64,000 nt of DNA. Source: Aquificales bacterium. GTDB lineage: Bacteria > Aquificota > Aquificia > Aquificales > QOAS01. Positions 18,231 to 49,122 of this stretch are shown piece by piece (the first letter of the stretch is position 1; each line of letters opens with the position of its first letter). The notes under the pieces are model-generated. The model was not told where the DNA came from. It did not search any database and saw only the letters and a list, made by a program, of their open reading frames with translations. The DNA is taken from positions 38,816 to 102,815 of the forward strand of contig JALWDU010000056.1 in NCBI GenBank assembly GCA_027036735.1, read 5' to 3'. The position numbers and the translations under genes are program-made.

Positions 18231-19489
18231 CTTAGGATAAAAAGAAAAAAATAAGCATAAGATGTAGTCAAGGCTATATAGCTTAATGAAAGCATATTAG
18301 CTATCTTACAGAAAAATAATATATTCAACTTTAAGCACAATGAAATTAACAAAATTAAAACCATTTTGCTTAAATTTTCCCTTATTTGAAAAATTCTATA
18401 AAAGACTCTCCATAGGAATATAAATGGCAAACCTAAAACATAAAATCTCGTAGCCTCCACCGTAAGTTTCATATCTACAATCGAAAATGCACCGTATCCG
18501 AAAAGTAATTTAACCAAATAAGGAGCAAAAACAAATATAAAAACCACAAAAGGTAAAGAAAGCAAAAATATTCTTTTTACATAAAAGTTAACCTTCTCCT
18601 TAGAAGCGTTAACTTCCGATAAAGAGGTTATAACAATATTCTCCAATTTAAAAATCCCTCTGGGTATCATCGCAACCATCCAGCCGTAAGAGAGAGCTGA
18701 AACACTTTTATGTGGCAAATAACTCGCAAAGACTCTATCTATTAACGCATATAGGTGGAAAACGGAATAAACTCCCAAAAGTTGGAGAAATTGTTTTAAC
18801 ATTCCCTTTACGGTTTTGTCTATATAAAACTTTATCTCCCAATAGTGTCTTGAAACCAAGACAATATAACCGGTCGCAATGAATTGGGAAACATCCAACG
18901 CTATTGGTAAAACTTTTGGATTTTTCGTAAAAAGCAAACCCAAGGTGGTAAGGAGAAATGTAAAAAACGAAAATAGGAGTTCTCCAAAAAAGTAAACCGT
19001 AAAGTGTCTTAAACTTCTATGAATTGCCCCAAAGTGGTGAAAGAAAAAGCTAAAAAACAGGTAAGGTATTAAAAGTAAAAAGTATTCCTTTAAAAGTTCC
19101 TTTTCACTTTCGCTATAACCGAAGGCGATGTTTATAACTATTGGACTCAAAATGAAGGCTAGCAGAGTAATAACCACCGCAAGGATTGTTGTAAAGGTTA
19201 ATAAAACTCCCGCAAGGTTTTGAAATTCTTCAAAACTCCTCTGCCGGGCTCTCACCAAATTGGGAACACCGAGAGAGTCAAAAACATCCGTAAAGATTAA
19301 AAATAATCCCAATAAACCCAGAGCTAAAAAGAATGCGTCGGTATCCAAGCTAAAGCCTATCAGTACCGCTATGGCTACCTGTTTTAAATAACCAAACCCC
19401 CTTGAGAGGAGGTTTAAAAAGGAAGACTTAAATATAGCTTGTAAAACCGTTTCCCTATTTGGCTTCAGGATACCTTTTAACCCCTTCAT
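18206..19489 (-). CDS. MurJ/MviN-like (MOP superfamily) polysaccharide flippase
   Basis: 427 aa, polytopic. The N-terminus LLSRGFGYLKQVAIAVLIGFSLDTDAFFLA matches the MurJ pattern (SRxxGxxR...G...DAF). Confidence 0.7.
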   Translation of the reverse strand: MKGLKGILKPNRETVLQAIFKSSFLNLLSRGFGYLKQVAIAVLIGFSLDTDAFFLALGLLGLFLIFTDVFDSLGVPNLVRARQRSFEEFQNLAGVLLTFTTILAVVITLLAFILSPIVINIAFGYSESEKELLKEYFLLLIPYLFFSFFFHHFGAIHRSLRHFTVYFFGELLFSFFTFLLTTLGLLFTKNPKVLPIALDVSQFIATGYIVLVSRHYWEIKFYIDKTVKGMLKQFLQLLGVYSVFHLYALIDRVFASYLPHKSVSALSYGWMVAMIPRGIFKLENIVITSLSEVNASKEKVNFYVKRIFLLSLPFVVFIFVFAPYLVKLLFGYGAFSIVDMKLTVEATRFYVLGLPFIFLWRVFYRIFQIRENLSKMVLILLISLCLKLNILFFCKIANMLSLSYIALTTSYAYFFLFILSYSFFKKM

Positions 19490-19524
19490 CAGAGCAGGAG
19501 GATTATGGTAACCCTAAAGGAGGT

Positions 19525-20070
19525 TTACAGCCTCTTCCAAACCTCCTTTGGGTCTAACTTCAGTTTGCAATTCCCTTCGAGTTCGAAGGAAAACTCACTA
19601 TCCAAAGGAAGGTCTTTGTATTTCCCTTCCCCTGTTAGGGTTTTTAAAACCATTTTTTTCTCTTGTGGGTAGACCAGTAGGTAATACTTGACCCCCTCCT
19701 TGGCGTAGTAGAGCGGTTTAATCTCCTCATCCATTTTCCGCGAAGCGGAAGAGACCACTTCGACAATAATTTTCGGTGTTTTTGTTAGTTTCTCGTCCCT
19801 ATTTCCGCAAACGACCGCAATATCGGGGCGGAATACGGTATCTTCGGAGACTATGTAATCGGTGTCTATCGTCACCACGCAGTCTTTACACTCCTCATTT
19901 TCCTCCAATTGCCGTTGGAGGAGCATAAAGATAATTCCAATTATTCTCTGATGGGTGAGGGAAGGAGAGGCGAGAGCGTAGGGTATACCTTCAACCAGTT
20001 CCCAATCCCCTTCCCACCTTTCGTAATCCCTTACCGTGTAGTGGGGTAGGTGTTTTTTCTGCAAGAGCAT
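19525..20070 (-). CDS. Uma2 (DUF820) family putative endonuclease
   Basis: 181 aa. YERWEGDWELVEGIPYALASPSLTHQRI ... PDIAVV ... IVEVVS is the PD-(D/E)xK-like Uma2 pattern. Confidence 0.75.
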   Translation of the reverse strand: MLLQKKHLPHYTVRDYERWEGDWELVEGIPYALASPSLTHQRIIGIIFMLLQRQLEENEECKDCVVTIDTDYIVSEDTVFRPDIAVVCGNRDEKLTKTPKIIVEVVSSASRKMDEEIKPLYYAKEGVKYYLLVYPQEKKMVLKTLTGEGKYKDLPLDSEFSFELEGNCKLKLDPKEVWKRL

Positions 20071-20084
20071 TATAGGAAATTAAT

Positions 20085-21371
20085 TTAGAGCCTCCAGTAT
20101 AGGAATTCTTTTTCGAACTCCGTCTTTGGGTATATACCCTTTATATCGACCAATACAGGGTTATCTTTGGTTAATTCCTTGAAGTGTTCCACTTTCAAAT
20201 CCAGAAACTCTTTGTGTTTAACGGCAATTACTATTCCATCATAGGGTTCGTTTTCTTTTTTGTCCTCCACAAGTTCTATTCCGTAATATTTCTTAACCTC
20301 CTCGGGGTTGGCTATTGGGTCGTATACCGACACTTGGATTCCGTATTCTTCTAATTCCTTAACGAGGTCCACAACCTTTGAATTCCTAACATCGGGAACG
20401 TTTTCTTTAAAGGTTATTCCCATTACGAGGACTTTGGAGTTCTGAACAACCTTTCCGGCTTTTATTAGAAGTTTTACCACCTTTTGGGCTACAAATTGGG
20501 GGGTGTAGTCGTTTATACGCCTGCCGGCGAGGATTAGTTCGGGATGGAAGCCGATTTCTCTCGCCTTATACGCCAAGTAGTAGGGGTCTTCGGGTATGCA
20601 GTGTCCCCCTACCAAACCGGGTTCAAATTTTAGAAAGTTCCACTTTGTGCCGGCGGCTTCGAGGACATCGCGGGTATCTATACCGAGGCGGTCGAAGAGC
20701 ATAGCCAATTCGTTCATAAAGGCGATGTTTATGTCCCTCTGGGTGTTTTCTATAACCTTTGCCGCTTCGGCCACCTTTATGGAGGGCGCTATGTGGATTC
20801 CCGCCTTTACCACTTTGCTGTATAATTCGGCGAGTAGTTTTGCCGTTTTCGTGGTATCTCCGGAAACCACCTTAACGATATTCTCCAATGTATGTTTTTT
20901 ATCCCCAGGATTTATCCTTTCGGGGGAGTATCCTACGAAAAAGTCTTCCTTCCACTTTAAACCGCTTTCCTTTTCCAAGATGGGAACGCAAACCTCTTCG
21001 GTGCAACCTGGGAAAACGGTGGATTCGTAAACGACTACAGACCCCTTTTTCATATTTCTACCAACAATTTGGGAGGCACTTTTCAGAAATCTAAGGTCGG
21101 GATTTTTGTATTTATCGGTCGGGGTGGGGACTGTAACAATAAAAATATCCGCCCTTTGGAGTTCTTTTTCATCGGAGGTATAAACTATATTTGGGTTAAG
21201 GATATCCTCTTTTGCCACCTCTCCGGTTCGGTCTATACCTTTTTTGAGTTCCTCTACACGGGTGGGATTTATATCAAAACCTATAACGGGGAAATGTTTC
21301 GCAAAAGCTACCGCTACGGGAAGTCCTACATATCCCAAACCTATAACGGCAATAGTCGATTTTTTCTCCAT
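20085..21371 (-). CDS. UDP-N-acetyl-hexosamine 6-dehydrogenase (TviB/WbpO/CapL type nucleotide-sugar dehydrogenase)
   Basis: 428 aa. Rossmann IAVIGLGYVGLP and catalytic Cys in LVGGHCIPEDPYY. Confidence 0.88.
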   Translation of the reverse strand: MEKKSTIAVIGLGYVGLPVAVAFAKHFPVIGFDINPTRVEELKKGIDRTGEVAKEDILNPNIVYTSDEKELQRADIFIVTVPTPTDKYKNPDLRFLKSASQIVGRNMKKGSVVVYESTVFPGCTEEVCVPILEKESGLKWKEDFFVGYSPERINPGDKKHTLENIVKVVSGDTTKTAKLLAELYSKVVKAGIHIAPSIKVAEAAKVIENTQRDINIAFMNELAMLFDRLGIDTRDVLEAAGTKWNFLKFEPGLVGGHCIPEDPYYLAYKAREIGFHPELILAGRRINDYTPQFVAQKVVKLLIKAGKVVQNSKVLVMGITFKENVPDVRNSKVVDLVKELEEYGIQVSVYDPIANPEEVKKYYGIELVEDKKENEPYDGIVIAVKHKEFLDLKVEHFKELTKDNPVLVDIKGIYPKTEFEKEFLYWRL

Positions 21372-21465
21372 TTGGAGAAATCAATTTTAGAAAACTTCTA
21401 TAGATATTAAGAAATTCATTGGTTTTTTTTCTTAAAAGAGGTATATGAAAGAAAAAACTATACTT

Positions 21466-22041
21466 TTAAACGCTTAGGAATTCATCAATCTTAAATAAAG
21501 AGTAAAGTTTTAATCCTTCCCTTTCGAGATTTTCCCTTCCACCTTCGTTTCGGTCGACGATACAGCAGACGGCGACGACTTCCAAGCCGTATTCCTTGCA
21601 AGCCTTTACAGCCTTTAGAGAGGAGGAGGCGGTGGTTACGACATCTTCGACAACAATTACCCTCTCACCCGGTTCGACGTTACCCTCTATTTGACGTTTT
21701 GTGCCGTGACCTTTGGGTTCCTTTCTAACCACGAAGGGTTTTATTGGGTCTCCCTTTTGATAGGAGATGAGGGCGGTGGCGTAGGCTATCGGGTCGGCTC
21801 CGAGGGTTAGCCCCCCTACCGCGCTAACCCCGAAGGGCTTAACCATTTCGTACATGAGGTTTCCTATTAGGTATCCCCCTTCGGGGTCGAGGGTTACCCT
21901 TTTGAGGTCGAGGTAATACCTCGATAGCTTTCCCGAAGAGAGCTTGAATATCGGTTCATCGGCTATTTTTAAGCTTCTCTCCTTTATGAGTTCGAAAAGC
22001 CTTTGCTTCAAATCCATAGGGTGGTTTATGTTATTCGACAA
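21466..22041 (-). CDS. pyrE: Orotate phosphoribosyltransferase
   Basis: 191 aa. PRPP-binding motif [13 protein letters not shown] and OPRTase-length architecture. Confidence 0.88.
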
Positions 22042-22106
22042 ACCCTCAAAGGGTTGCCAATAGGTTTTTATCCATCAGAAGTATTGGATTTGTAAATTTA
22101 TCCCCG

Positions 22107-22892
22107 ATGAGGGATTGCCCCTATATCGTCGAGCAAATAGTCCGTCCAACGGGTATTCCCGACCCCGAGGTGGAGGTTAGACCAACCGAAAATCAGTTGG
22201 AGGACTTGATAAAGGAAATAAAAGCCCGCGCTCCGCGCGGGGAAAGGTCTCTGGTTTTAACGACCACTAAGAGACTTGCCGAAGAGGTTGCCGACTATCT
22301 GTCGGAGAGGGGTATAAGGGCGAAATATCTACACTCCGATTTGAACGCAATAGAGAGGGCAAAGGTTATAAAGGAACTCCGAGAGGGAAAGATAGATGCG
22401 ATAGTGGGGGTAAACCTTTTGAGGGAGGGGTTAGACCTCCCGGAGGTTTCGTTGGTCGCCATTTTGGAGGCGGACAAGGAGGGGTTTTTAAGGAGTTACC
22501 GAAGCCTTATACAGATAATCGGAAGGGCGGCTCGCCACGTAAACGGCAAGGCTATCCTTTACGCCGACCGCATCACCCCTTCGATGAAAAAGGCTATTGA
22601 GGAAACCGAGAGGAGGAGAAAAATCCAACTCGAGTACAACAAAAGGCACGGAATAACTCCAAAACCTATAAAGAAAAAGGTTGTTAGTCTCCTTTCGGTG
22701 GAGGGTTTGGATTTGGAGCGGAAACTTCCGGGGGTAGATATTGAAAAATTCCGCTCCGAGGAGGAGGTTTTAAAGGAAATTTCGAAACTGGAAAAGGAGA
22801 TGTGGGAAGCCGCCAACAATTGGGAGTTTGAAAAGGCGGCGAAACTCCGCGATAGGATAAACGAGTTAAAAAAACTGGTAGGTTTGGTTTAG
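22107..22892 (+). CDS. uvrB: UvrB C-terminal fragment only (helicase domain 3 + UVR domain); truncated/split uvrB
   Basis: 261 aa. [75 protein letters not shown] and the UVR motif [17 protein letters not shown] align to about residues 410-670 of full-length UvrB. No N-terminal two-thirds is present, and pyrE lies 65 nt upstream on the other strand. There is no clear SD. Confidence 0.85.
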
Positions 22893-23101
22893 GCTTCCAA
22901 TTCCATTTCCTTTGGCAGTTCCAAAACTATGGTGTAGGCGACCAGAAAGCCGTCGAACCCGTGCTCTTTCGTGTAGTTTACCTTTATGTCCTTTATGGTC
23001 GCCCCGCTATCCTGAAATGTGTCGAGCAACTCGTTAAGCCTCATGGTTATTTCGGTGGAATTGCCTTCCAAAACCACAAATTCCGCCTTTATCCTCCCCA
23101 T
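22889..23101 (-). CDS. Hypothetical small protein (70 aa)
   Basis: ORF only. Its beta-alpha-beta-beta-like pattern is weakly reminiscent of dodecin. Not supported further. Confidence 0.35.
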
Positions 23102-23139
23102 AAAGGGGTAATATAGGGCTGTCAGATTTCAAGCATGGT

Positions 23140-23397
23140 TTGGGGATTATTTTCCCTCTTATGGGAAAGGTTCTGTTTAAAGACCAACTGGGGGAGGAAT
23201 TGGTTTTAGACCTATCGGAGGTGGTTGCGGCAAAATTAAACCGCAACCTAAGGAGCATTACCTTCTACTTTAAGGGGACGCCGAAGGATTCCTCCTTTAC
23301 CGTAGTGTTCCCATCGTTGGAGGAGGCGGAAAACTTTTGGAACACCGAAGTGGTTTCGAATGTAATCGTCCACTTTGAGGTGGAGAGCGCCGAGTGA
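23140..23397 (+). CDS. Hypothetical small protein (85 aa; start may be the internal MGKVLF)
   Basis: ORF only; no motif recognised. Confidence 0.3.
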   Translation: MGIIFPLMGKVLFKDQLGEELVLDLSEVVAAKLNRNLRSITFYFKGTPKDSSFTVVFPSLEEAENFWNTEVVSNVIVHFEVESAE

Positions 23398-23451
23398 AAG
23401 ACCCTTTATGGGGTTGATAATTTCCTACCTTCGGGTGGAATTGAAAACTTT

Positions 23452-24996
23452 ATGACCCTTCGGTGGATTTTATTGCTCTTCCTTTTCCTCCTATCGGCGG
23501 CAAATTTGGGACTTAACGACATATGGCAACCGAACGAGGCTTTTTACGCCGAGACCGCCCGCGAAATGCTCGAAAGCGGCAACCCGCTCGAGCTCACCTA
23601 CAACTACGAACCGCGTCTCGAAAAGCCGCCAATGACCTACTGGCTCACCGCCTTGTCGTATAGCCTCTTCGGTATAGGCGAGTGGCAAACCCGATTGGTG
23701 CCGCTTCTATCGACCTTCGGAACAGCCATTTTGCTACTCCTCTACGGGCGGTTTTTAAAAAATTGGCGTTTCGGACTTACCGCCGCCCTCGTGTTTCTCT
23801 CCGCCCTGCAGGTCTTTGCGCTGGCGCGCTACGACGCCCCCGAAATGCCGCTTTTGTTTTTCCTAACGGGGTCTTTTATTACTCTGCATCTCTACCTCGA
23901 GGGGAGGGGTAAACTCTTTCTCCCCCTTTCGGGGTTGTTTTTGTTGTTCGCACTCCTCACAAAGGGTATTCCGTTTTTAGCCCTCTACCTCGGAACGGCG
24001 GGTTTTTACCTCCTCCTAAAGTGGGTTTTAAAGGAGATAGACCTCAAAGGGGGGATAAAGACCCTCCTAAAGGTAACCTTTTGGGGAATTCTGGCTTCCC
24101 TGCCGATTTTGGGGTGGTATCTTTACGCCTACAACCACTACGGGGAACTGTTTATAAAGGTTTTCCAATCGGAGGTAATACACAGGGCTTTTAACCCCTA
24201 CAAGGGGTGGAATTGGAGCTTTTACCTCGTGGTGATACTTTGGGCGTTTTTACCCCTCTCGCTCCACTTCTACTATTCCCTTATAGGTCTGCTGTTCCGC
24301 CTAAAGGAATACAAAAACCTTCTCTTTCCCTTTGCGTGGTTCGGCGTAACGATTGCCGCCTTTACCGTAGCTAAAGGGAAGATACCGGTTTACATCCTCC
24401 CCGCCTTCCCCGCCATGGCGGTTTTGACCGCCCGCCTCGACGGGCTTAGGCACCCGTTTATAGCGGGTTTGAACTACCTTATTCTGCTCCTCCTATCGGT
24501 AGCTTTCCTTTTCTCCCTCCACTTTTTGGACGCCATTAATAATTTAGCCCTTTGGAGTTTCTTCCTTTTGGCGTTAGCCCTTTGGGTTTCTTTGAGCAGA
24601 TACGAGCTTATGAGGAATATCATCGCTGTAATACCTATCTTATACCTCTTCGTTTTCGCCGTTTTACCCTTCGTCGAGCATTACCGCCCCTACAAGGAGG
24701 TTATTACCGAACTAAAAAGCCGCTTCGCGGATAAAAAATTCCTCTGTTTGGGATTCTTTTACAAAGACTTTCCCTTCTACTGGAGGGGAAAGGTTTACGT
24801 GCTCCGTTCGGAGGAGGGGTTAAGGCGTTTCAACCCCAAAGAGGTTTTGCTCTTTTCTCCCAAACCCTTGAAGGGGTGGAAGGTTGTCAAACGGGTGGAG
24901 CTCTATACCGGTTCGGAGTCCCGCTTTCTGGTCTTTTTAAAGGATATAAAGAGACACAAAAGGTTTAAGGAGTTTTATTTCCTCGTCAAGGATTGA
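23452..24996 (+). CDS. ArnT/PMT_2-like (GT39/GT83) polyprenyl-phosphate-sugar dependent glycosyltransferase
   Basis: 514 aa with about 12 TM helices. The first periplasmic loop NEAFYAETAREMLESGNPL...EKPPMTYW is typical of the family. Confidence 0.8.
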   Translation: MTLRWILLLFLFLLSAANLGLNDIWQPNEAFYAETAREMLESGNPLELTYNYEPRLEKPPMTYWLTALSYSLFGIGEWQTRLVPLLSTFGTAILLLLYGRFLKNWRFGLTAALVFLSALQVFALARYDAPEMPLLFFLTGSFITLHLYLEGRGKLFLPLSGLFLLFALLTKGIPFLALYLGTAGFYLLLKWVLKEIDLKGGIKTLLKVTFWGILASLPILGWYLYAYNHYGELFIKVFQSEVIHRAFNPYKGWNWSFYLVVILWAFLPLSLHFYYSLIGLLFRLKEYKNLLFPFAWFGVTIAAFTVAKGKIPVYILPAFPAMAVLTARLDGLRHPFIAGLNYLILLLLSVAFLFSLHFLDAINNLALWSFFLLALALWVSLSRYELMRNIIAVIPILYLFVFAVLPFVEHYRPYKEVITELKSRFADKKFLCLGFFYKDFPFYWRGKVYVLRSEEGLRRFNPKEVLLFSPKPLKGWKVVKRVELYTGSESRFLVFLKDIKRHKRFKEFYFLVKD

Positions 24997-26611
24997 AGTT
25001 TTGAAGTTCCCTTAGGAGGGAGATAAGTCTCTCCTTTGCCCCTCTTAGTTCCCTTAGATTTTGCTCCACCGTTTCGAGGCGGCTCTTTACGTAATTCCTC
25101 ATCGACAGGAGGGTCTCTTCGAGTCTCCGTTCCACCAATTGGTCTATCTCTCTTTTCAACCTCTCCCCTATCTGGGTTTGGAGGATATCCCTAAGCTCCT
25201 TTAGGAGTTTTCTCTTTTTCCTAACAATCCAACCGACGCCGAGCAAAACGCCAAGGGAAGCTATCACACCCCCGGTTATGTCGACCGCAAAGGAACCGCC
25301 GAGAAGCATCATCAGGGAGCCGGCGAGTAGACTCCCGCCCATTACGGCGACCGCTTCCTCCCCGCCGCCAACTTTGACCGAACCGAGGGAGCTTTCGAAG
25401 GCTCTTAGCACCTCCCTTTCCCCCGAAGGGGCTACCTTTTTACCCAATTTTCTCTGGTAGCGTTCGAATTCTCTAAGCCTTTCGGCGGCTTGGGCTACCA
25501 CCGGCTTCAGAACGCCCTCTTCAAATAACTCGAGGTTGGGGATTAGGGTATATTGGGTAAACCTGCGGAGTTCCTCCTCTATGTCCACCTTTAGACCCTT
25601 TAACGCCTCCTCCACCTTCGACTTGCGGAGGGTTAGGTCGAGCAGGGATATACCCTCGAGGCGGTTTGCCACCTTCTCGGTAAGGGACGCAATCCAATCG
25701 TCAACCGACCTAAGGAGACTCTCCTTATACCTCTTTGCCTCTTGGAGTTTTCTATCGAGTAGGTTTAAGACCTCCTCGAGGCGTTTTTTTAGCTCCTCCC
25801 CCTCCCTTTCGAGGTTTTCTATATCCTCCAAACACCTTTGGGTGAATTTGATAAGTTCGTTCCTCAGGTTGAGGAGCTTTACCTTTATCTGCCTCTCGCC
25901 GGTGTAGTTTTCCTCCAAAAACTTCCTAAGTTCGGAAAATCCGCTATTTTCTTCCCCCTTCAGTTCGAGGAGGGCGGAAACGGGGAACACCTTGGGGTCT
26001 TCTATTCCCCTCTCCCTCGCGTAGGTTTTTACTTTTTCAACTAACCTCTTTAGGGCTTCGGGTGAAACCAAATCCTTTTGTTGGAGTATAAAGACGAGCT
26101 TTTTACCGAAATCTTTCCCTATCCGGTCAACCCAATCCCATATAGGCTTGGTGTGGGGGTTGGGGGCGGGGAGAACCACCAAAATGACGTCGCTCTTTGG
26201 AAGAAATTGCTCCGTTATATAGGTGTGGTGCTCGAGAACGGAGTTTATCCCCGGTGTGTCGACAACGGTAAACCCCTTTAGGAGGGGATTGTTTACGCAA
26301 ACCTCCTCGGTGAGTTCGTCTATCTTTTTCCTTTCGGGGGTTTTGCAGTATCTAATCACTGTTATTCGGTCGGTGCATATGTCGACGTCCGTTCGGCAGA
26401 GGTCGGGAATACCCAAAAGGGCGTTTAAAAAGGAACTCTTTCCCGCATTTACCTCCCCGAAAACGGTAATGAGAAAGGGACTTTCCAACCTTTGGAGGAA
26501 CTTTTCCAACTCCTCCACCTTTCGGGAAAAACCGAATTTGGAGCAGACCTCTTTGAGGGTTTCTATTGCCGACTTTAGGGTATCCAAATTACTCCCGGAG
26601 GGCTTTAACAT
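24986..26611 (-). CDS. Bacterial dynamin-like GTPase with membrane hairpin
   Basis: 541 aa. G1 GEVNAGKSSFLNALLG, G3 DTPGINS, G4-like LQQKD. A long helical stalk is followed by a Gly-rich hydrophobic hairpin (AVAVMGGSLLAGSLMMLLGG...GVIASLGVLLGVGWIVRKKRK). Confidence 0.75.
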   Translation of the reverse strand: MLKPSGSNLDTLKSAIETLKEVCSKFGFSRKVEELEKFLQRLESPFLITVFGEVNAGKSSFLNALLGIPDLCRTDVDICTDRITVIRYCKTPERKKIDELTEEVCVNNPLLKGFTVVDTPGINSVLEHHTYITEQFLPKSDVILVVLPAPNPHTKPIWDWVDRIGKDFGKKLVFILQQKDLVSPEALKRLVEKVKTYARERGIEDPKVFPVSALLELKGEENSGFSELRKFLEENYTGERQIKVKLLNLRNELIKFTQRCLEDIENLEREGEELKKRLEEVLNLLDRKLQEAKRYKESLLRSVDDWIASLTEKVANRLEGISLLDLTLRKSKVEEALKGLKVDIEEELRRFTQYTLIPNLELFEEGVLKPVVAQAAERLREFERYQRKLGKKVAPSGEREVLRAFESSLGSVKVGGGEEAVAVMGGSLLAGSLMMLLGGSFAVDITGGVIASLGVLLGVGWIVRKKRKLLKELRDILQTQIGERLKREIDQLVERRLEETLLSMRNYVKSRLETVEQNLRELRGAKERLISLLRELQNFNP

Positions 26612-31128: not shown

Positions 31129-32880
31129 CTATTTAAATTCTAAGATTTCCTTCCACGAGCGGACTTTCATCAAAATATCAGGCCAACCTAAAAAACTTAT
31201 TCTTATTTCCGCATCAGGAAAAAGTTTTTTTACCTCATGTAGATTAAAACCCAAATTTTGCTTATCTTTTACCTCTTCAGGTGTATACCAAATTTTACTC
31301 TGTAGATCGGAATTATAGGAAATTATTGTTATTTTCTTCTTTTTGGGTTTATTGTGACTGTTAGCTTCTGTATGATTTTTTGAACTTCCATAAAGTTCTA
31401 TAGTAAAGTTATTAGAAATATCATCTTCTGGAAATGAATAACCTATTATTATCAAATGGTCGTATTCACGTAGTTTATTAAACACGATATTCTTTAAATG
31501 CCTTAAAAAAAATATTTCATCCGATTTTAGAATGGTTTGAATACTAAGAGGGGTGTCTTCAAAATAAGTAGGAAATCCACAGTTAGGACAAGGCAATTCA
31601 TCAGGACGTCCCTTTTTATAAGCTTCATAAAGTAAAGTTCCTTTATATTTTTTGCTAACTATTTTCATATCGTGAATTGATGGAATGGGATCTAGTAAAA
31701 ATAAGTCTCTTAATCCTTCATAGGTGGCTACATTTAAATTATTAATTTTTGTTGGCATTATCATGAATAGTTGGTTACAGTAAGGGCAAAACCTTATGTT
31801 AAAAAGACCATGGACTGCATAAAGTTTGATTAATTGAAGGAATAAATTGCTATCTATTTTTGTTTCTTCGTAGACCCATGACTTCATTGTCTGCTTATTT
31901 ACAAAATAAGCTGTATCTTCCGAAATAAGTATTTCATCCCATATTTCTTTTTGTTTCCGAGAATTAAATTCCTTATCCAATCTAACTATAGGAATATTCC
32001 AAGTAAAGTCCACATAAGTTTGAGGTAAAATATCGTTACGTAAAGTGTTTATCTCCATTCTCTTATTGGCATAACGATTTGCTTTTATCAATATAAATGG
32101 TAAAAATGGATCCCAATTGAAAGTTAGAAATTCTATAGGCAGTACGAATAAATCTCTTTTTATAATTACATTAAGATTTTCAGGATTTTTTATAGTTTCT
32201 AATATTAAATCTCTAAAAAAATTATAATAAATCTTGGTTTTTTGTGTATTAGGTGTGTGTGCTAAGACGATTTTAAATAATTTATAGGTGAAATATTTGT
32301 AAAAATCTAAAGCTTTTTTGGATCTATGAGGTCTATTATAATAAATAACTTTCTTGTTTCTATCGTTCTTTCTTGAAAATAGCTCTTTCGTAGGTATAGA
32401 TATATTTTCTTCATAGGCTTTATCTAATAATGTTAAAAATCTTACAAGAGGAACATTTTCTTTCTCGTCATCGGGTAAAGAGTTTTTCCATTGAAGGTAA
32501 AAACTTCTAAAAGCCAGATAATCAAATTTTCTATAGGAATCCTGTAAATAATATCGGAAATATTCTGGGTCTCCATCTGGAAAAATTTGTTTATACTTCT
32601 TAACTAAGAAGTCAATAACTCTTTCTCTTTTTTTAAGAGCTTCTTCTAAACTACCAGCCCCGTCGCCATCTAACAATATAAGAAGAGTCCGTTCTAAATC
32701 CTTTTGAAGATGAAACTGTAGTTTGCCTTTTAAAATCTGTCGGTTAATTTCTTCCAATCTATCTATTAATTTTTTATTAAGATTTACTACTATGTTTATA
32801 GCTTTAGCTATGTCTTGAGTAGTAATGGCACCTAAATTAACCGAAAAACCTGCACCGATAATAAAAAGGGTTTTAAGCAT
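31129..32880 (-). CDS. SIR2-like (sirtuin-fold, Zn-module containing) protein with a large N-terminal helical insertion; candidate NADase effector
   Basis: 583 aa, very AT-rich. The ordered sirtuin motifs are IIGAGFS (res 7-13), TFNWD (253-257) and AVHG (355-358), followed directly by CPYC (365-368). A second pair CPNC sits at 431-434, then LIIIGYSFPEDD (476-487). Confidence 0.7.
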   Translation of the reverse strand: MLKTLFIIGAGFSVNLGAITTQDIAKAINIVVNLNKKLIDRLEEINRQILKGKLQFHLQKDLERTLLILLDGDGAGSLEEALKKRERVIDFLVKKYKQIFPDGDPEYFRYYLQDSYRKFDYLAFRSFYLQWKNSLPDDEKENVPLVRFLTLLDKAYEENISIPTKELFSRKNDRNKKVIYYNRPHRSKKALDFYKYFTYKLFKIVLAHTPNTQKTKIYYNFFRDLILETIKNPENLNVIIKRDLFVLPIEFLTFNWDPFLPFILIKANRYANKRMEINTLRNDILPQTYVDFTWNIPIVRLDKEFNSRKQKEIWDEILISEDTAYFVNKQTMKSWVYEETKIDSNLFLQLIKLYAVHGLFNIRFCPYCNQLFMIMPTKINNLNVATYEGLRDLFLLDPIPSIHDMKIVSKKYKGTLLYEAYKKGRPDELPCPNCGFPTYFEDTPLSIQTILKSDEIFFLRHLKNIVFNKLREYDHLIIIGYSFPEDDISNNFTIELYGSSKNHTEANSHNKPKKKKITIISYNSDLQSKIWYTPEEVKDKQNLGFNLHEVKKLFPDAEIRISFLGWPDILMKVRSWKEILEFK

Positions 32881-38584: not shown

Positions 38585-39328
38585 ATGTTGGACTTTACGG
38601 GAAAAACCGTTTTGGTTACGGGTTCAACCCGCGGTATAGGTAGGGCTATTGCTGAGGAATTCGCCAAACACGGCGCAAACGTAATAGTCAGCGGAACCGT
38701 AAAAGAGCGCGCCCAAGAGGTGGCTAAAGAGCTGTCGGAAAAATACGGGGTGAATACCCTCGGCGTGGGTATGGATGTTTCCGACCCGAGGAGCGTTGAG
38801 GATGCCTTTAGGGAAATAAATGCCGCCTTCGGCGGGGTTGATATTTTGGTAAACAACGCCGGTATCACCCGCGACACCCTTTTCCTACGGATGAAAACGG
38901 AGGACTGGCAAAAGGTTTTGGACGTCAACCTCACCGGCGCCTTTCTCGTCACCAAGCAGGTGGTGCGTTACATGACCAAACGACGTTGGGGAAGGATTAT
39001 AAACATCTCTTCCGTCGTGGGTTTTACCGGAAATGTGGGGCAGGTAAATTACGCCACAACCAAGGCGGGTCTTATAGGCTTTACCAAATCTTTAGCCAAG
39101 GAGCTCGCCCCCCGCAACGTTTTGGTTAACGCCGTGGCGCCCGGCTTTATAGAAACCGATATGACCGAAAACCTCAAAGAGGAGATAAAAGAGGAATACA
39201 GAAAACAGATACCCCTGGGTAGGTTTGGAAAACCGGAAGAGGTCGCAAAAGTTGTGTTATTTTTGGCTTCCCCTATGGCGGATTACATAACCGGGGAAAC
39301 GATACACGTAAACGGGGGAATGTATTAA
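38585..39328 (+). CDS. fabG: 3-oxoacyl-[ACP] reductase
   Basis: 247 aa SDR. TGSTRGIGRAIA, NNAGI, and catalytic S...YxxxK (NYATTKAG). Confidence 0.9.
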   Translation: MLDFTGKTVLVTGSTRGIGRAIAEEFAKHGANVIVSGTVKERAQEVAKELSEKYGVNTLGVGMDVSDPRSVEDAFREINAAFGGVDILVNNAGITRDTLFLRMKTEDWQKVLDVNLTGAFLVTKQVVRYMTKRRWGRIINISSVVGFTGNVGQVNYATTKAGLIGFTKSLAKELAPRNVLVNAVAPGFIETDMTENLKEEIKEEYRKQIPLGRFGKPEEVAKVVLFLASPMADYITGETIHVNGGMY

Positions 39329-40320
39329 CCCCCTTTTACCGGTATATACTTCGCCGCTATTTCGAACCGCTCCCGCAGGGTGGCGGGCTTTTGCTTATTC
39401 CTTTCCGCCACATGCTTTATCCAATCGGGGTCTTTTCTCAAACTTTCCACCCTTTGGCGTCCCTGTCTATTCCAATACTCCAACGGGGATAAGTTCTCCC
39501 TCTCCGAATCCAACAGGAGGAAAGCCACTATATCGCTCCAATAAGGGGCTTTTACCACATCGACGCCTATCCCCTTGAGGTATTCGATAAACTCCATAGC
39601 CCCCTCGAGGAGGCTTTCCAGTTTCTCCACCGAAAGGTTTTTGAGAGCCTCCCTCAGCCAGCGGTAGAGCCAATCGTAGTACCTCTTAAAGTTGAAATAC
39701 TCGTCTTTTATACCCCTCTTTAGGAGGGTGTAACCAGCCAAAACCCTCGCGAGGATACCGAAACCCTTTAACCTCCTCGGGGAGAGTTTATCCCCGAACT
39801 CCTTTAGGAGGGGTGTCTTCTCCCCATCGTAAGTGAGAACCATTAAAAGTTCCTGTTGGTTTAGGGGTGTGGGTTTGTAGTTAATCCGGGTGAATATCTC
39901 CTTTGCAACTTCGAAATCGTTTACGCCCGAATAGACCACCGCACCCCATTCTGCGCCGAGGAGTTCCCTTTTAACCTCCTCCGGAAGTTCCTCAAACCTC
40001 TTTCCCTCGAGGGTTTCTACCAAACCTTGGTCTATGTGGGATAGGTGGTCGTCCAAACCTATCTTAAAGTCCCCTTCGATAAAATCGCTTACGGCACTGA
40101 TGCGCTGAAGCCCGTCGAGGAGCAGATATTTACCGCCCTCCCCCTCTATCAGCACTATGTCGGGAAGCCCTATCGTCAGGAGCGAGTAAATCGCCTCCGA
40201 GCGCTTCTTTCTATTCCAAACCTTTCCCCGCTGAAAGCGGGGGACTTCTATCTCACCCCTCTTTACCTTATTTAGGAGGGTTTCGACATCCCACTGAACG
40301 CGTCGGCGTTTTAGTTGCAT
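39325..40320 (-). CDS. DUF262 (ParB-like, GmrSD N-terminal type) domain protein lacking a DUF1524/HNH nuclease domain
   Basis: 331 aa. IEVPRFQRGKVWNRKKRSEAIYSLLTIGLP, LLLDGLQRISA and FTRINYKPTPLNQQE match the DUF262 core motifs (PxFQR, DGxQR, F..lN). The C-terminal half is helical with no H-N-H pattern. Confidence 0.7.
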   Translation of the reverse strand: MQLKRRRVQWDVETLLNKVKRGEIEVPRFQRGKVWNRKKRSEAIYSLLTIGLPDIVLIEGEGGKYLLLDGLQRISAVSDFIEGDFKIGLDDHLSHIDQGLVETLEGKRFEELPEEVKRELLGAEWGAVVYSGVNDFEVAKEIFTRINYKPTPLNQQELLMVLTYDGEKTPLLKEFGDKLSPRRLKGFGILARVLAGYTLLKRGIKDEYFNFKRYYDWLYRWLREALKNLSVEKLESLLEGAMEFIEYLKGIGVDVVKAPYWSDIVAFLLLDSERENLSPLEYWNRQGRQRVESLRKDPDWIKHVAERNKQKPATLRERFEIAAKYIPVKGG

Positions 40321-44365: not shown

Positions 44366-46174
44366 ATGCGAAAGGTTGGATTTGTAATAGGAAACAGACC
44401 CGCCAACCCGCTCGAGTTTTGGGTCGGGATAGAGAGGGGAAACGTCGTTCAGCTCGACGATATCCTGAAGGTGGAAAGCACCCTCGAAAACGGACAGAGG
44501 GTCGAGTTTTACGGCGTGGTGGCGGAGGTTTACCGCTACCTCGAGGGTTCGGAATTCGTATTCGATTCGAAAGATTTCGTTCAGGGGAAACTGCCGGCAA
44601 ATCTCGCCTACGTGGCAAAGGTGCAGGTTACCCGCATAGACGACGAAATATACGTTCCCCCCTTTCCGGGCGACCCCGCCTTTCTCGTTGGTAGTGGCGA
44701 CGGCGAAATAGACAAAGCCCTCTACTTCGACCAGATGAAGGTTAAAATCCCCGCAGGGCTTTTGAGAAATGGGGAACCGGCTTATATCAACTACCACTTT
44801 TTAAACGGGAGAGACGGGGCGCATATCTCTATAAGCGGAATTTCGGGAGTGGCGTCGAAAACTTCCTACGCCCTCTTTCTGCTCTATTCGATACTAAACC
44901 GAGTTAGGGAGGAGAGGGTTAACGCCCTAATTTTCAACGTCAAAGGTGAAGACCTCTTTTTTATAGACAAACCGAACAGGGTGTTTCACGAGAGGAGGAA
45001 GGATTTCGAACCCCTCTACAGGAAAATGGGTTTGGAGGCGAAACCTTTCGAAGGTGTGAAGTTCTTCGCCCCCCCGGTAGGAAAGAATTCGTTAATTCCC
45101 GACGTTGAGAGTAGAAAGGAGGGTGTAAACACCTACCTCTGGACGGTTAGGGAGTTTGCCGAAGAGGAGCTCCTCAAATTTCTCTTCGTCGAGGGTGAGG
45201 AGGGGGTCGGAAGTCTCCACTATGTGATTGACAAGGTCGCCGAAAGGCTCAAAGAGATGGCGGAACTCACCCGCGAAGGACAAAGGGACAACCCCGGATG
45301 GGCGGGTAGGCTTATGAACTTCGACGATTACGACAACGTCGGCGAACCGATTCCACCCTACGAATTTACCGGCTTGGAAGACATTCTTTCTTTCCTAAAA
45401 AAGGTGGTGAAAAATAGGCGCGCCTGCAACGCGGACAAAACCTTTAGGAAAGAGAACGAGGACTTTTGCAACAAGACGGCGGAGGTCTATGAAAATTGGT
45501 TCGGAACGGTTACCGTTTCGGTAGCCTACGCCTTTTTGAGGCGCTTCGACCAAGCGGTTCAATACGTCTCCCCAATGGTGGTAAATCCCGACCTCTTGGA
45601 GGGTGAGGATAGGGAAAAGTTCCGCATAGATTGGAGAAATTCAAAACTTTCGGTGGTGGGAATTAACAAACTCCACACCATAGCGCAGATGTTTGTCGTA
45701 GGTTCCCTCCTCAAGAAGATATTTAAGGAAAAGGAAAAAATCGGTCGGAAACCGGTTCTCTATGTAGTCCTCGACGAGCTGAACAAATACGCCCCGAGGG
45801 GTGGGTGGTCTCCCATAAAGGATATACTGCTCGATATAGCCGAAAGGGGTAGAAGCCTCGGGATTATCCTCATCGGCGCACAGCAGACCGCCTCGGAAGT
45901 TGAAAAACGGATAGTGGCTAACGCCGCCGTAAAGGTGACCGGAAGGCTCGACGCCTCCGAAGTGGCGGCACGCGAATACGACTTCCTACCCCAAATATAC
46001 AAGCAGAGGGCTTTGCTCCTCAAAAAGGGGCAGGTAATAGTCCACCAACCCGATATCCCCGTGCCCCTCGTTCTAAGCTTCCCCTTCCCCGCATGGGCTA
46101 CGAGGGCGGAAGAGGTTCTGGAGGAACCCGATGGCGGCGATTTTGAAATTTTTGACAACTATTGTAGCGATTAA
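44366..46174 (+). CDS. HerA-like (COG0433/DUF87) FtsK-HerA superfamily ATPase with HAS-barrel
   Basis: 602 aa. N-terminal barrel (GFVIGNRPANPLEFWVGIE...VEFYGVVAEV). P-loop region ISISGISGVASKTSYA, a deviant Walker A with Ser before Lys. Walker B VLYVVLDELNKYAP. HerA-type LGIILIGAQQTASEV...VTGRL. Confidence 0.7.
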   Translation: MRKVGFVIGNRPANPLEFWVGIERGNVVQLDDILKVESTLENGQRVEFYGVVAEVYRYLEGSEFVFDSKDFVQGKLPANLAYVAKVQVTRIDDEIYVPPFPGDPAFLVGSGDGEIDKALYFDQMKVKIPAGLLRNGEPAYINYHFLNGRDGAHISISGISGVASKTSYALFLLYSILNRVREERVNALIFNVKGEDLFFIDKPNRVFHERRKDFEPLYRKMGLEAKPFEGVKFFAPPVGKNSLIPDVESRKEGVNTYLWTVREFAEEELLKFLFVEGEEGVGSLHYVIDKVAERLKEMAELTREGQRDNPGWAGRLMNFDDYDNVGEPIPPYEFTGLEDILSFLKKVVKNRRACNADKTFRKENEDFCNKTAEVYENWFGTVTVSVAYAFLRRFDQAVQYVSPMVVNPDLLEGEDREKFRIDWRNSKLSVVGINKLHTIAQMFVVGSLLKKIFKEKEKIGRKPVLYVVLDELNKYAPRGGWSPIKDILLDIAERGRSLGIILIGAQQTASEVEKRIVANAAVKVTGRLDASEVAAREYDFLPQIYKQRALLLKKGQVIVHQPDIPVPLVLSFPFPAWATRAEEVLEEPDGGDFEIFDNYCSD

Positions 46175-47178: not shown

Positions 47179-49122
47179 TTATTCTTCCTCATTTGCAGTA
47201 TCTTTAATATAAAAAGGCATTTTCTTATAAAGGAGCTCGTATAAGTCAAATGGTCTTCCCGCTAATTGTCCAACATCCCTAGTCCAGGGGGAAAGACTAT
47301 AGTAGCCTATAGCCTTTGTATCGCGCAATTTAAAGATTCTTAAAGGAATTGCTACAAAAATACCTTTATCATGATAGTTTCTATTCGGACCGGAGAAATT
47401 AGAGGTGTTCGAATAAGTATACCAAAAGCCTACTTCGAACCCGTGAACTTCCCGAGAGATTTCAAATCTAATTCCCTTATCCCCTGCTAGAAATCTTCCC
47501 GCTTTAATTTTGAATTTAATTCTAGGCTTTTGAGTTACATAATAGGCTGATATATATTCATCGTGGAATCTCCAATTTCTTAAACCAAAAACCCTATTAG
47601 GGTCTCTTTTATATACATAATCCCCTCCTATACCCACGGCAAATCTTCCATCCCCAAAAAAGTGAATAATATCTCCACCGATTCCGGCAAACATCAATTC
47701 GTTATAACCGGTTGAGATGCTTAAAAATGTATTTTTATAAATACTGTTAATGTAAGATAGCGATAAAACGCTAAAGTTAGGATGCTTTTGACCTAAATAA
47801 TCGGCTATATCGCTTCGAACCGGTTTTGGCATAAGAGGTTTATTTACTGTGCTGATATTATTAATGAATGGTATAAATAGGCTTGCATCTAAACGAAAGT
47901 TGTTAAAGAAATAACTCTCAACCCCTAAATCGATACTAAACATATATTTAAATGCACCGGAAGGGTCGTTAAGAAAAGTTCTCAGTTTCGGATATATAGT
48001 CCATTTATAGGTTATCCAATTTTTATTCCTTACTTTATAGTTATATGCAATTTTTGATTTTGCTTTTTTTAAAAGAGTTTCGTAGTCTTCCTTACCCAAC
48101 AGAAAGTTGTTAATATCCGCTCCGTTAAAAATAAACTCACTAATAGGAATATTTTTTTCCTTTACAATAATCTTAACCTTTCGAATATTCTTAAAATAAA
48201 GAACTTTCAGCACATATAAAATCTTTTTAATTGCAACACTATCAAAAAAATATTTATCAGTTGAGTATTCTATTACTAAGGTATCTCCTAATGTGTATAC
48301 TTCAACATTATCGTATTTAAGCTTTTCTAAAGCTTTTTCATAAAACTCCGTTTGTTTATTTTTTCTAATTAACTCAATATCTTCTTTTGTAAGCCTAAAA
48401 AATCTCTTTTTATGGGGTAACCAAGGTTTTCCCATGGGGAAATTTGCATTAATATTGATTCCATACGTAGTTCCTCTCTGGTAAGAAACCACTATTTGCA
48501 ACCAAGATAAAATTTGATACTTTAACCCTATATTTATCTTTGATTTTACTTCCTTATTTTGTAAACCTTTGAGTTCTTCCTTATTAATAGGAGAATATTC
48601 CAAAATAAATGATAATTTAGGGTGGAGTAAAATTTCACTTCCCGCAAAGAAACCGTTTAAGAGTTTCCCCTTTGCAACTCCAAATGTTAGATTTTCGGGA
48701 ATATAAAAGTCTATATATTTTGAAATTACCAAATATTTTGTATCAAATAGCTTGGTTCCATGGAAATCATCCCAACCTACAGCTATTGCAGGATATTTTC
48801 CTTTCTCGGGTAAAATTTGATATTTAACGAAAAAAGCTTTATCTTTGTATTTACCGTAACCAGACCAATAGTCTGAATTTAAGGTTATGTCTTCTATCTG
48901 TGTAATAACTCCCCCAATTTCTAATCCTGGAAAGAAACCAATATTTATATAACCCCTTAAATATGGATAGACATAGGAAATACCTAATGCCATATTTCCG
49001 TCTTTAACGGTGTAAGCTGTTGGGTTTTCTAATAAACCGGTTCTACCAAAGTTAGATAATATCGGCGTTGCGGACAAAACTGAAGAGGAAAATAAGAAAC
49101 TAGATATTAGAAATTTTTTCAT
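47179..49122 (-). CDS. YjbH/GfcD-like outer-membrane exopolysaccharide protein
   Basis: 647 aa with a signal peptide. The N-terminal FGRTGLLENPTAYTVKDGNMALG matches the YjbH pattern (FGGxGLLxxPTA). Aromatic-rich, beta-barrel-like sequence. Confidence 0.7.
   Translation of the reverse strand: MKKFLISSFLFSSSVLSATPILSNFGRTGLLENPTAYTVKDGNMALGISYVYPYLRGYINIGFFPGLEIGGVITQIEDITLNSDYWSGYGKYKDKAFFVKYQILPEKGKYPAIAVGWDDFHGTKLFDTKYLVISKYIDFYIPENLTFGVAKGKLLNGFFAGSEILLHPKLSFILEYSPINKEELKGLQNKEVKSKINIGLKYQILSWLQIVVSYQRGTTYGININANFPMGKPWLPHKKRFFRLTKEDIELIRKNKQTEFYEKALEKLKYDNVEVYTLGDTLVIEYSTDKYFFDSVAIKKILYVLKVLYFKNIRKVKIIVKEKNIPISEFIFNGADINNFLLGKEDYETLLKKAKSKIAYNYKVRNKNWITYKWTIYPKLRTFLNDPSGAFKYMFSIDLGVESYFFNNFRLDASLFIPFINNISTVNKPLMPKPVRSDIADYLGQKHPNFSVLSLSYINSIYKNTFLSISTGYNELMFAGIGGDIIHFFGDGRFAVGIGGDYVYKRDPNRVFGLRNWRFHDEYISAYYVTQKPRIKFKIKAGRFLAGDKGIRFEISREVHGFEVGFWYTYSNTSNFSGPNRNYHDKGIFVAIPLRIFKLRDTKAIGYYSLSPWTRDVGQLAGRPFDLYELLYKKMPFYIKDTANEEE

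Follow-up and report, generated by a model that had tools for sequence, protein, structure and literature searches.

A split uvrB gene, probably encoding a two-chain UvrB, in an uncultured clade of Aquificota

We analysed a 64,000-nucleotide stretch of the genome of an Aquificales bacterium (GenBank assembly GCA_027036735.1, contig JALWDU010000056.1, positions 38,816 to 102,815 of the forward strand), hereafter called the window. A gene at 22107..22892 on its plus strand encodes only the C-terminal part of the excision repair protein UvrB, in 261 amino acids. We consider it probable, at roughly 85%, that this gene is the C-terminal part of a genuinely split uvrB, and that its product reassembles with a separately encoded N-terminal half so that the two chains act as UvrB. 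To our knowledge, UvrB has been described only as a single chain. Our searches of open-access literature found neither a split uvrB nor a fission of the gene described.

The reading frame of the window gene starts with ATG and is uninterrupted, and its earliest possible start lies downstream of an in-frame stop. The product consists of UvrB domain 3, which is the second RecA-like domain and carries helicase motifs IV-VI, the UvrB-specific segment, and the C-terminal UVR helical hairpin (domain 4). Pfam recognizes Helicase_C (PF00271) at residues 31-144 (22197..22538, plus strand; E = 9.7e-22), the UvrB-specific segment (PF12344) at residues 151-192 (E = 2.6e-24), and the UVR motif (PF02151) at residues 223-256 (22773..22874, plus strand; E = 1.6e-10). 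Motif V and motif VI (QIIGRAAR) can be read from the translation of the Helicase_C region. In characterised UvrB, the UVR motif is the helical hairpin that binds UvrC. TIGR00631, the NCBIfam equivalog model for UvrB, aligns residues 7-255 with model positions 405-658 of 658 (363 bits, E = 2e-108). The open reading frame (ORF) alone stays below the equivalog cutoff of 750.1 bits solely because half of the protein is missing. By alignment, it corresponds to residues 404-655 in the UvrB of Bacillus caldotenax (1T5L, 2FDC), which places the break in the short linker preceding the first strand of domain 3. In the 64-kb window, a motif search and tblastn gave no UvrB N-terminal motif or N-half match in any frame. 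An earlier note, made from the letters of the window alone, had described an orphan C-terminal UvrB ORF with intact motifs, broken where domain 3 begins, with the VEQIVRPTG segment about seven residues after the start and with the roughly 410 N-terminal residues of a normal UvrB missing. This description holds in all these respects, and the segment begins at residue 8.

Domain 1a, the beta-hairpin, and the UvrA-binding domain 2 are not encoded in the window. They are encoded by separate N-half genes in the same genomes as the stand-alone C-halves. Two low-coverage contigs hold a UvrB N-part that ends in SATPGDWEIKRVCSQGGERNV directly before a stop codon, and the next ORF in locus L007 is a HAMP-domain gene. 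The N-half family (P0252-P0263) has 411-417 amino acids, is 82-98% identical to the N-part used as the query, and lies on contigs of up to 270 kb. The N-halves carry the ResIII/DEAD, UvrB_inter (PF17757), and UvrB_3rd domains, and have neither Helicase_C nor UVR. The Walker A motif G(A/V)TG(T/S)GK(T/S), DESH, SATP, and the beta-hairpin motif are intact, and YYDYYRPEAY is present. TIGR00631 matches the N-half P0254 over positions 2-400 with 651 bits, which alone is again below the 750.1 cutoff. P0254 and the window ORF tile the model with a gap of four positions, and their summed score is 1015 bits.

Both halves occur together in individual assemblies. In the metagenome-assembled genome (MAG) GCA_026996015.1, the C-half P0243, with 258 of 261 residues identical to the window protein, lies on contig JALWND010000020.1, and the N-half P0254 lies on contig JALWND010000124.1. 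The gene order around this C-half is that of the window (ugd-pyrE-C-half-orf70-PMT_2-dynamin), with 93.8% nucleotide identity to window positions 20091-25892. P0243 and P0254 also co-occur in the ENA assemblies ERZ23491667 and ERZ23491300. In another lineage, the N-half P0258 (on 29 contigs) and the C-half P0011 (on 48 contigs) are found together in JGI 3300013794 and ENA ERZ23486590, and the locus tags of the halves of this lineage, EYH48_02105 and EYH48_05870, share one prefix. Scaffold positions in ERZ23486590 put the two halves more than 130 kb apart: on the 229-kb scaffold of the N-half, the nearest end is about 110 kb away, and on the 49-kb scaffold of the C-half, the end is about 24 kb away. 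The neighbours of the N-half vary by lineage. A HAMP-HisKA kinase gene is downstream in some, pyrG and thiF stand on either side in one, and the surroundings in another are different again. In several genomes, the next gene follows 1-10 nt after the N-half stop codon. The earlier note had suggested a genome search for the N-terminal part or for a second uvrB. The N-half was found as a separate gene, and the genome scan described below gave no second uvrB C-terminal match in the genomes of the seven split-clade species among the 80 best loci from 422 relatives.

Stand-alone C-halves recur in related genomes. A protein search gave about 30 C-half clusters (at 90% identity) of 253-284 amino acids, with 73-100% identity to the window ORF. 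Their sources are NCBI, JGI, ENA, and Logan assemblies of Aquificota MAGs and vent metagenomes, on contigs of up to 120 kb. Since this search lists no target longer than about 1.75 times the query, the missing of full-length relatives there is no evidence of a split. The question was settled by a genome scan with the C-half as the query, using one genome per GTDB species, and by local tblastn with both halves. The scan covered the best 80 of 422 relatives' loci and reached down to 55% identity. The seven loci of at least 79% identity (L009-L015) have a stand-alone C-half, with no UvrB N-part in the 0.5-10 kb upstream by tblastn, and L001-L006 and the window likewise have no UvrB N-part upstream. 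All 71 loci of at most 76% identity whose upstream sequence was long enough carry uvrB as one unbroken, full-length gene. These unsplit loci include Thermocrinis, Hydrogenobacter, Hydrogenobaculum, Aquifex, outgroups at the level of Persephonella, and other phyla. A neighbour-joining tree built on the C-terminal region groups the split sequences in one clade, with the unsplit Aquificaceae as its sister. This indicates one fission event, in an ancestor shared by these uncultured hot-vent Aquificota.

The break point is identical in all lineages despite their different flanking genes. Upstream of the C-half is a 4HBT thioesterase gene in L001, fabH on the opposite strand in L003-L006, and ORFs resembling universal stress proteins, identified by eye from the sequence, in L009. 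In several lineages, an in-frame stop codon lies 0-4 codons upstream of the C-half ATG. An independent ENA assembly (L105) is 99.9% identical to window positions 19085-22312 and spans the junction between pyrE and the C-half gene, which excludes a misassembly there. These results bear on two further checks that the earlier note had suggested. The junction is not an assembly artefact, and the adjacency of pyrE and the C-half is kept in the lineage of the window, whereas elsewhere the neighbours are others and the break point is the same. Two side observations concern fragmentary or misplaced uvrB sequences. The locus L011 (QOAS01000174.1) carries a split-clade C-half (89% identity) and orf70, although its MAG bears the label "Gammaproteobacteria bacterium"; probably, an Aquificota contig was binned wrongly or the MAG was given the wrong name. 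UvrB fragments of 196-393 amino acids (P0081, P0085, P0110, P0074, P0056, P0043, P0047, P0124, P0128, P0139, P0143, and P0147) are also seen on contigs of 48 kb to 6.4 Mb from other phyla, including a Leptolyngbya MAG. Some of these end out of frame, which suggests frameshifts or long-read errors.

Both halves are maintained by strong purifying selection. By the pairwise Nei-Gojobori method, the ratio of nonsynonymous to synonymous substitutions (dN/dS) is 0.03-0.13 for both halves. The proportion of synonymous differences (pS) is 0.6-0.9 between most species, and dS is above 1 or saturated. In the nearest pair, the window and L009, dS is 0.18 and dN/dS is 0.055. As a reference for residue conservation, we used 174 alignment columns with at least 97% invariance among 57 unsplit UvrBs of several phyla. 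The N-halves keep 107-108 of 109-110 of these residues, the C-halves keep 62-66 of 65-66, and the window protein keeps 65 of 65. Retention per half is thus 94-100%, mostly 98-100%. The sole clade-wide changes at conserved positions are in the N-halves (P0252-P0263, e.g., L100 3001-4242). These are Q to R at the base of the beta-hairpin, with YYDYYRPEAY in place of the near-invariant YYDYYQPEAY, and C to A, with SVSAIYGLG in place of SVSCIYGLG.

The earlier note had left it open whether the ORF was left behind as a pseudogene by a recent rearrangement or belongs to a genuinely split gene. The gene is truncated in comparison with every characterised UvrB, it has no Shine-Dalgarno (SD) sequence, and its relatives at NCBI are labelled "partial" or "hypothetical protein", all of which would fit a decaying pseudogene or a misassembly or binning artefact. 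Decay or artefact is nevertheless hardly credible as an explanation. The frame is intact in about 30 clusters at the low dN/dS and saturated dS given above, the same break point recurs in different genomic contexts within a monophyletic clade, and independent assemblies reproduce the junction. The in-frame stops just ahead of the ATG in several lineages also speak against it, and absence of an SD sequence is the norm in the window. Frame disruption, dN/dS near 1, and a sporadic distribution, which would mark a pseudogene, are not what was found. Of the two options in the note, the split gene with its N-part elsewhere is borne out by the same-assembly pairs, by the purifying selection on both parts, and by the presence of the split throughout a clade. 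The recent rearrangement is not, as synonymous sites are saturated between most members. The note's argument that an intact frame speaks against old decay agrees with the dN/dS values of both halves.

How a split UvrB could work may be pictured as follows. One fission would have cut uvrB in the linker between domain 1a and domain 3, at about B. caldotenax residues 403/404. The N-half, of about 411-417 amino acids, would contribute Walker A, DESH, SATP, the beta-hairpin, and the UvrA-binding domain 2. The C-half, of about 260 amino acids, would contribute motifs IV-VI and the UvrC-binding UVR hairpin from a distant locus, each half being translated from its own start. After translation, the two polypeptides would associate into a two-chain UvrB, in which the ATP site would be rebuilt across the interface, one chain supplying motifs I-III and the other motifs V and VI. 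Such a complex would work in UvrABC excision repair in the same way as single-chain UvrB. The ATPase motifs are intact in each half although each half holds only part of the site, which argues that the composite site is still used.

The two halves could instead be functional but no longer cooperate. The N-half, for instance, would then serve on its own as a module that binds UvrA and DNA damage, much as the UvrB-homology module does in Mfd. The C-half would be a separate accessory, UvrC-binding or another ATPase accessory. The genes are unlinked and their neighbours vary by lineage, so that co-regulation is not evident; the N-half weakly matches the Mfd model (TIGR00580, E = 1.6e-21); and the change of Q to R in YYDYYQPEAY affects a universally conserved residue throughout the clade. 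However, each half lacks half of the ATPase site, and still Walker A, DESH, and SATP in one half and motifs V and VI with GRAAR in the other are unchanged. The retention of near-invariant residues seen in both halves is expected only if the composite site is used. A conserved cysteine at both new termini also points to lasting contact. We therefore regard non-cooperating halves as unlikely, and two chains that act jointly as UvrB as the better explanation.

The cysteines at the junction deserve a closer description. In unsplit relatives, the linker reads WE(I/L)ERSxGx(V/I)VEQIVRPTG, and any cysteine occurs there in only 3 of 66 unsplit loci. All 11 complete N-halves end in WE(I/L)xRVC, followed by 3-9 variable residues and the stop codon (e.g., CSQGRV, CGQNR, or CKQGL). 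All 30 C-half clusters start with Met and 1-6 variable, mostly charged residues (e.g., MRD, MRER, MERR, or MKE), followed by C-x-x-(I/V/L)VEQ. In the window protein, this residue is Cys4, the sole cysteine, encoded by TGC at 22116..22118 (plus strand), three residues ahead of IVEQ, the first strand of domain 3. The position of the cysteine is invariant, and the two residues after it vary. Both junction cysteines map to one ancestral linker position, R+2, so the two thiols would be adjacent if the halves dock as in intact UvrB. In GCA_026996015.1, the end of the N-half (AAG AGG GTT TGC) and the start of the C-half (ATG AGG GAT TGC) are identical at 10 of 12 nucleotides. The likeness points to a duplication of a few codons at the breakpoint, with an AAG-like codon turned into the new ATG. 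Common descent would account for a cysteine on both halves, but not for both remaining invariant while their neighbours drift.

One tentative explanation, which we think possible but would not favour, is that the cysteine of the RVC motif in the N-half and the cysteine of C-x-x-IVEQ in the C-half form an interchain disulfide, which would tether the two chains in place of the lost peptide bond. Aquifex aeolicus is prominent for intracellular disulfide bonding among the thermophilic bacteria examined (PMC3177088; see also PMC1188242), and its TrmD has an intersubunit disulfide, as cited in PMC3177088. The evidence for intracellular disulfide bonding in the phylum is bioinformatic. TrmD is a parallel from the same phylum, with a disulfide that holds subunits together at high temperature. 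The proposed bond in UvrB differs in that it would replace a lost backbone bond between fragments of one chain. If it exists, a cytoplasmic interchain disulfide re-tethers two RecA-like domains at the very place of the lost bond, giving a "disulfide-stapled" split helicase in hyperthermophiles, and the redox state could gate excision repair.

Cysteines at both new ends also raise the question of whether the halves are rejoined, by protein trans-splicing with a split intein, by RNA trans-splicing, or by DNA inversion at a shared junction sequence. A cysteine is found as the first residue of inteins and as the +1 extein residue, the stretch AAG/ATG AGG GNT TGC is identical at 10 of 12 nucleotides at both ends in one genome, and inteins invade uvrB in related Aquificales, though within the Walker A motif. 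Yet the 3-9 residues after the N-half cysteine and the 1-6 residues between Met and the C-half cysteine are far too short for an intein fold. Neither an N-intein fragment with blocks A and B nor a C-intein end is present. Asn directly precedes the +1 Cys in 3 of 30 heads (P0004, P0008, and P0028), and His-Asn precedes it in none. Judged from these sequences, the halves cannot undergo protein splicing. There is likewise no room for intron halves, given the 1-10 nt between the N-half stop and the next gene in several genomes and the 65-nt spacer ahead of the C-half, and no Rfam family reaches its gathering score in the 64-kb window; we rejected RNA trans-splicing on these grounds. Every assembly found has the split configuration, the flanks are not conserved between lineages, and no conserved recombination site is visible, so that reassembly by DNA inversion is unsupported. 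Rejoining of any kind is thus very improbable, and we retain the reading in which two separate chains associate.

As a separate observation, two unsplit Aquificales MAGs (L039 6142-9666 and L043 6474-10019) carry an intein of about 510 amino acids in the Walker A motif of uvrB (GATGTGK / SLHPEE...FVHN / TFTLANV), with the Pfam domains Intein_splicing and LAGLIDADG_3. The gene has therefore been invaded by inteins in this order, at a site other than that of the split.

Some points weigh against a two-chain UvrB, or against its disulfide. All genomes considered are MAGs or metagenome contigs. The pairing was seen in a 94%-identical sister MAG and in other lineages, not in the exact assembly of the window. 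The case for assembly of the halves is their joint conservation. The two cysteines could descend from one ancestral cysteine codon that was duplicated at the breakpoint, and they might persist for a reason other than a disulfide. Finally, a strict sigma-70 consensus scan of the 65-nt spacer ahead of the window gene gave no promoter.

In comparison with canonical single-chain UvrB (TIGR00631/PRK05298; 1D9Z, 1T5L, 2FDC, and 1C4O), the split pair has every domain (1a, 1b, 2, the beta-hairpin, 3, and 4/UVR) and keeps almost every invariant residue, and only jointly do the halves have the full set of UvrB sequence features. About 55-60% of positions, by a hand count over the alignment, match between the C-half and solved UvrB of the thermophilic Bacillus type, and each half is near to solved structures. 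The pair differs from canonical UvrB in that it is encoded by two unlinked genes and has a short variable tail and an invariant cysteine at each new end. In Nanoarchaeum equitans, reverse gyrase and an Lhr-like large helicase are each split into two unlinked ORFs, and the products presumably reassemble non-covalently. These cases resemble split UvrB in that a large protein with an ATPase/helicase fold is made from two unlinked ORFs. They differ in that N. equitans is a reduced archaeal symbiont with many split genes, whereas the split uvrB occurs in a bacterial lineage of free-living type with ordinary housekeeping genes around it, is cut between two RecA-like domains, and has paired cysteines. 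The N. equitans split helicase-type genes seem the nearest analogues in kind, and the likeness to genes fractured by split inteins appears superficial. In the latter, such as cyanobacterial DnaE (PMC2677866), the pieces are likewise distant, with Cys at the end of the N-piece and at the start of the C-piece. Unlike these, the split uvrB lacks any intein sequence, including the block A and block G motifs.

To work, UvrB needs an ATP-driven motion of its domains 1 and 3 relative to each other. A cut at this hinge, with both pieces kept over a long time, would mean that the covalent linker is dispensable. The two halves would also provide a ready-made, two-chain, thermostable system in which communication between the domains, hand-off from UvrA (N-half), and recruitment of UvrC (C-half) are separable. 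The co-conserved cysteines offer a testable hypothesis on how split proteins may be stabilised at high temperature. In databases, the genes of the split clade are labelled "partial", "hypothetical protein", or "helicase-related protein". With such labels, estimates of completeness and pathway calls would wrongly score nucleotide excision repair as defective in this clade.

Upstream of the window gene, on the opposite strand, lies pyrE, encoding orotate phosphoribosyltransferase (21466..22041, minus strand; TIGR00336, 146 bits against a cutoff of 106.8). It stands upstream of the C-half in the lineage of the window only and is absent from this position in L001, L003, and L009-L015; it is a neighbour and lies outside the split UvrB system. 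The two divergent genes are separated by a 65-nt spacer (22042..22106), as the earlier note had stated. Its remark that this spacer has no clear SD sequence is also true, but this does not count as evidence against expression. Only 11 of the 44 window ORFs of at least 200 amino acids have an SD-like core, and these are mainly internal genes of operons; the other 33 have none. The absence of an SD sequence before the C-half gene is therefore uninformative. The spacer contains a -10-like box, TAAATT, at 22093-22098, which ends 8 nt ahead of the ATG. TAnnnT boxes that end 7-12 nt before the ATG are found for the C-half and N-half genes of other genomes and for many genes of the window. These boxes suggest that the C-half gene may be expressed from a leaderless mRNA or one with a very short leader.

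Downstream, the C-half gene converges with orf70 (22889..23101, minus strand), a 70-amino-acid gene without an assigned function that overlaps the end of the C-half gene by 4 nt. It adjoins the C-half in the window and in 6 of the 8 other species-level lineages compared, 7 of 9 in all, with 77-90% identity; copies are found in L003 (10780-10992), L009 (9199-9411), L010, L011, L014, and L015. The product belongs to no Pfam or NCBIfam family and has 14 matches among 1.84 billion representative proteins, of which 4-5 are small proteins of 52-70 amino acids and the others are odd matches to repeats in very long proteins. With no family and so few homologues, no claim of a functional link between orf70 and the C-half gene is possible, and their linkage may merely reflect the scarcity of intergenic space for breakpoints. 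Between the window (22105-23117) and L009 (8415-9427), nucleotide similarity is confined to a module of about 1 kb that consists of the C-half gene and orf70, and the flanks are unrelated. The C-half of L009 is 98% identical in amino acid sequence to that of the window, with the low dS given above. Either the module has moved or both flanks have recently been rearranged.

Three large ORFs of the window (31129-32880, 44366-46174, and 47179-49122) have no NCBIfam match at E<=1e-10. Its large ORFs are ordinary chromosomal genes, such as those for PNPase, PurL, RNase Y, an asparagine synthase-like amidotransferase, and polysaccharide export and biosynthesis. Boxes like TATAAT or TAAATT are seen 7-12 nt before the starts of many of the long ORFs (e.g., 2235, 4826, 22107, and 39325-40320), which suggests that leaderless mRNAs or mRNAs with short leaders are widespread in this genome.

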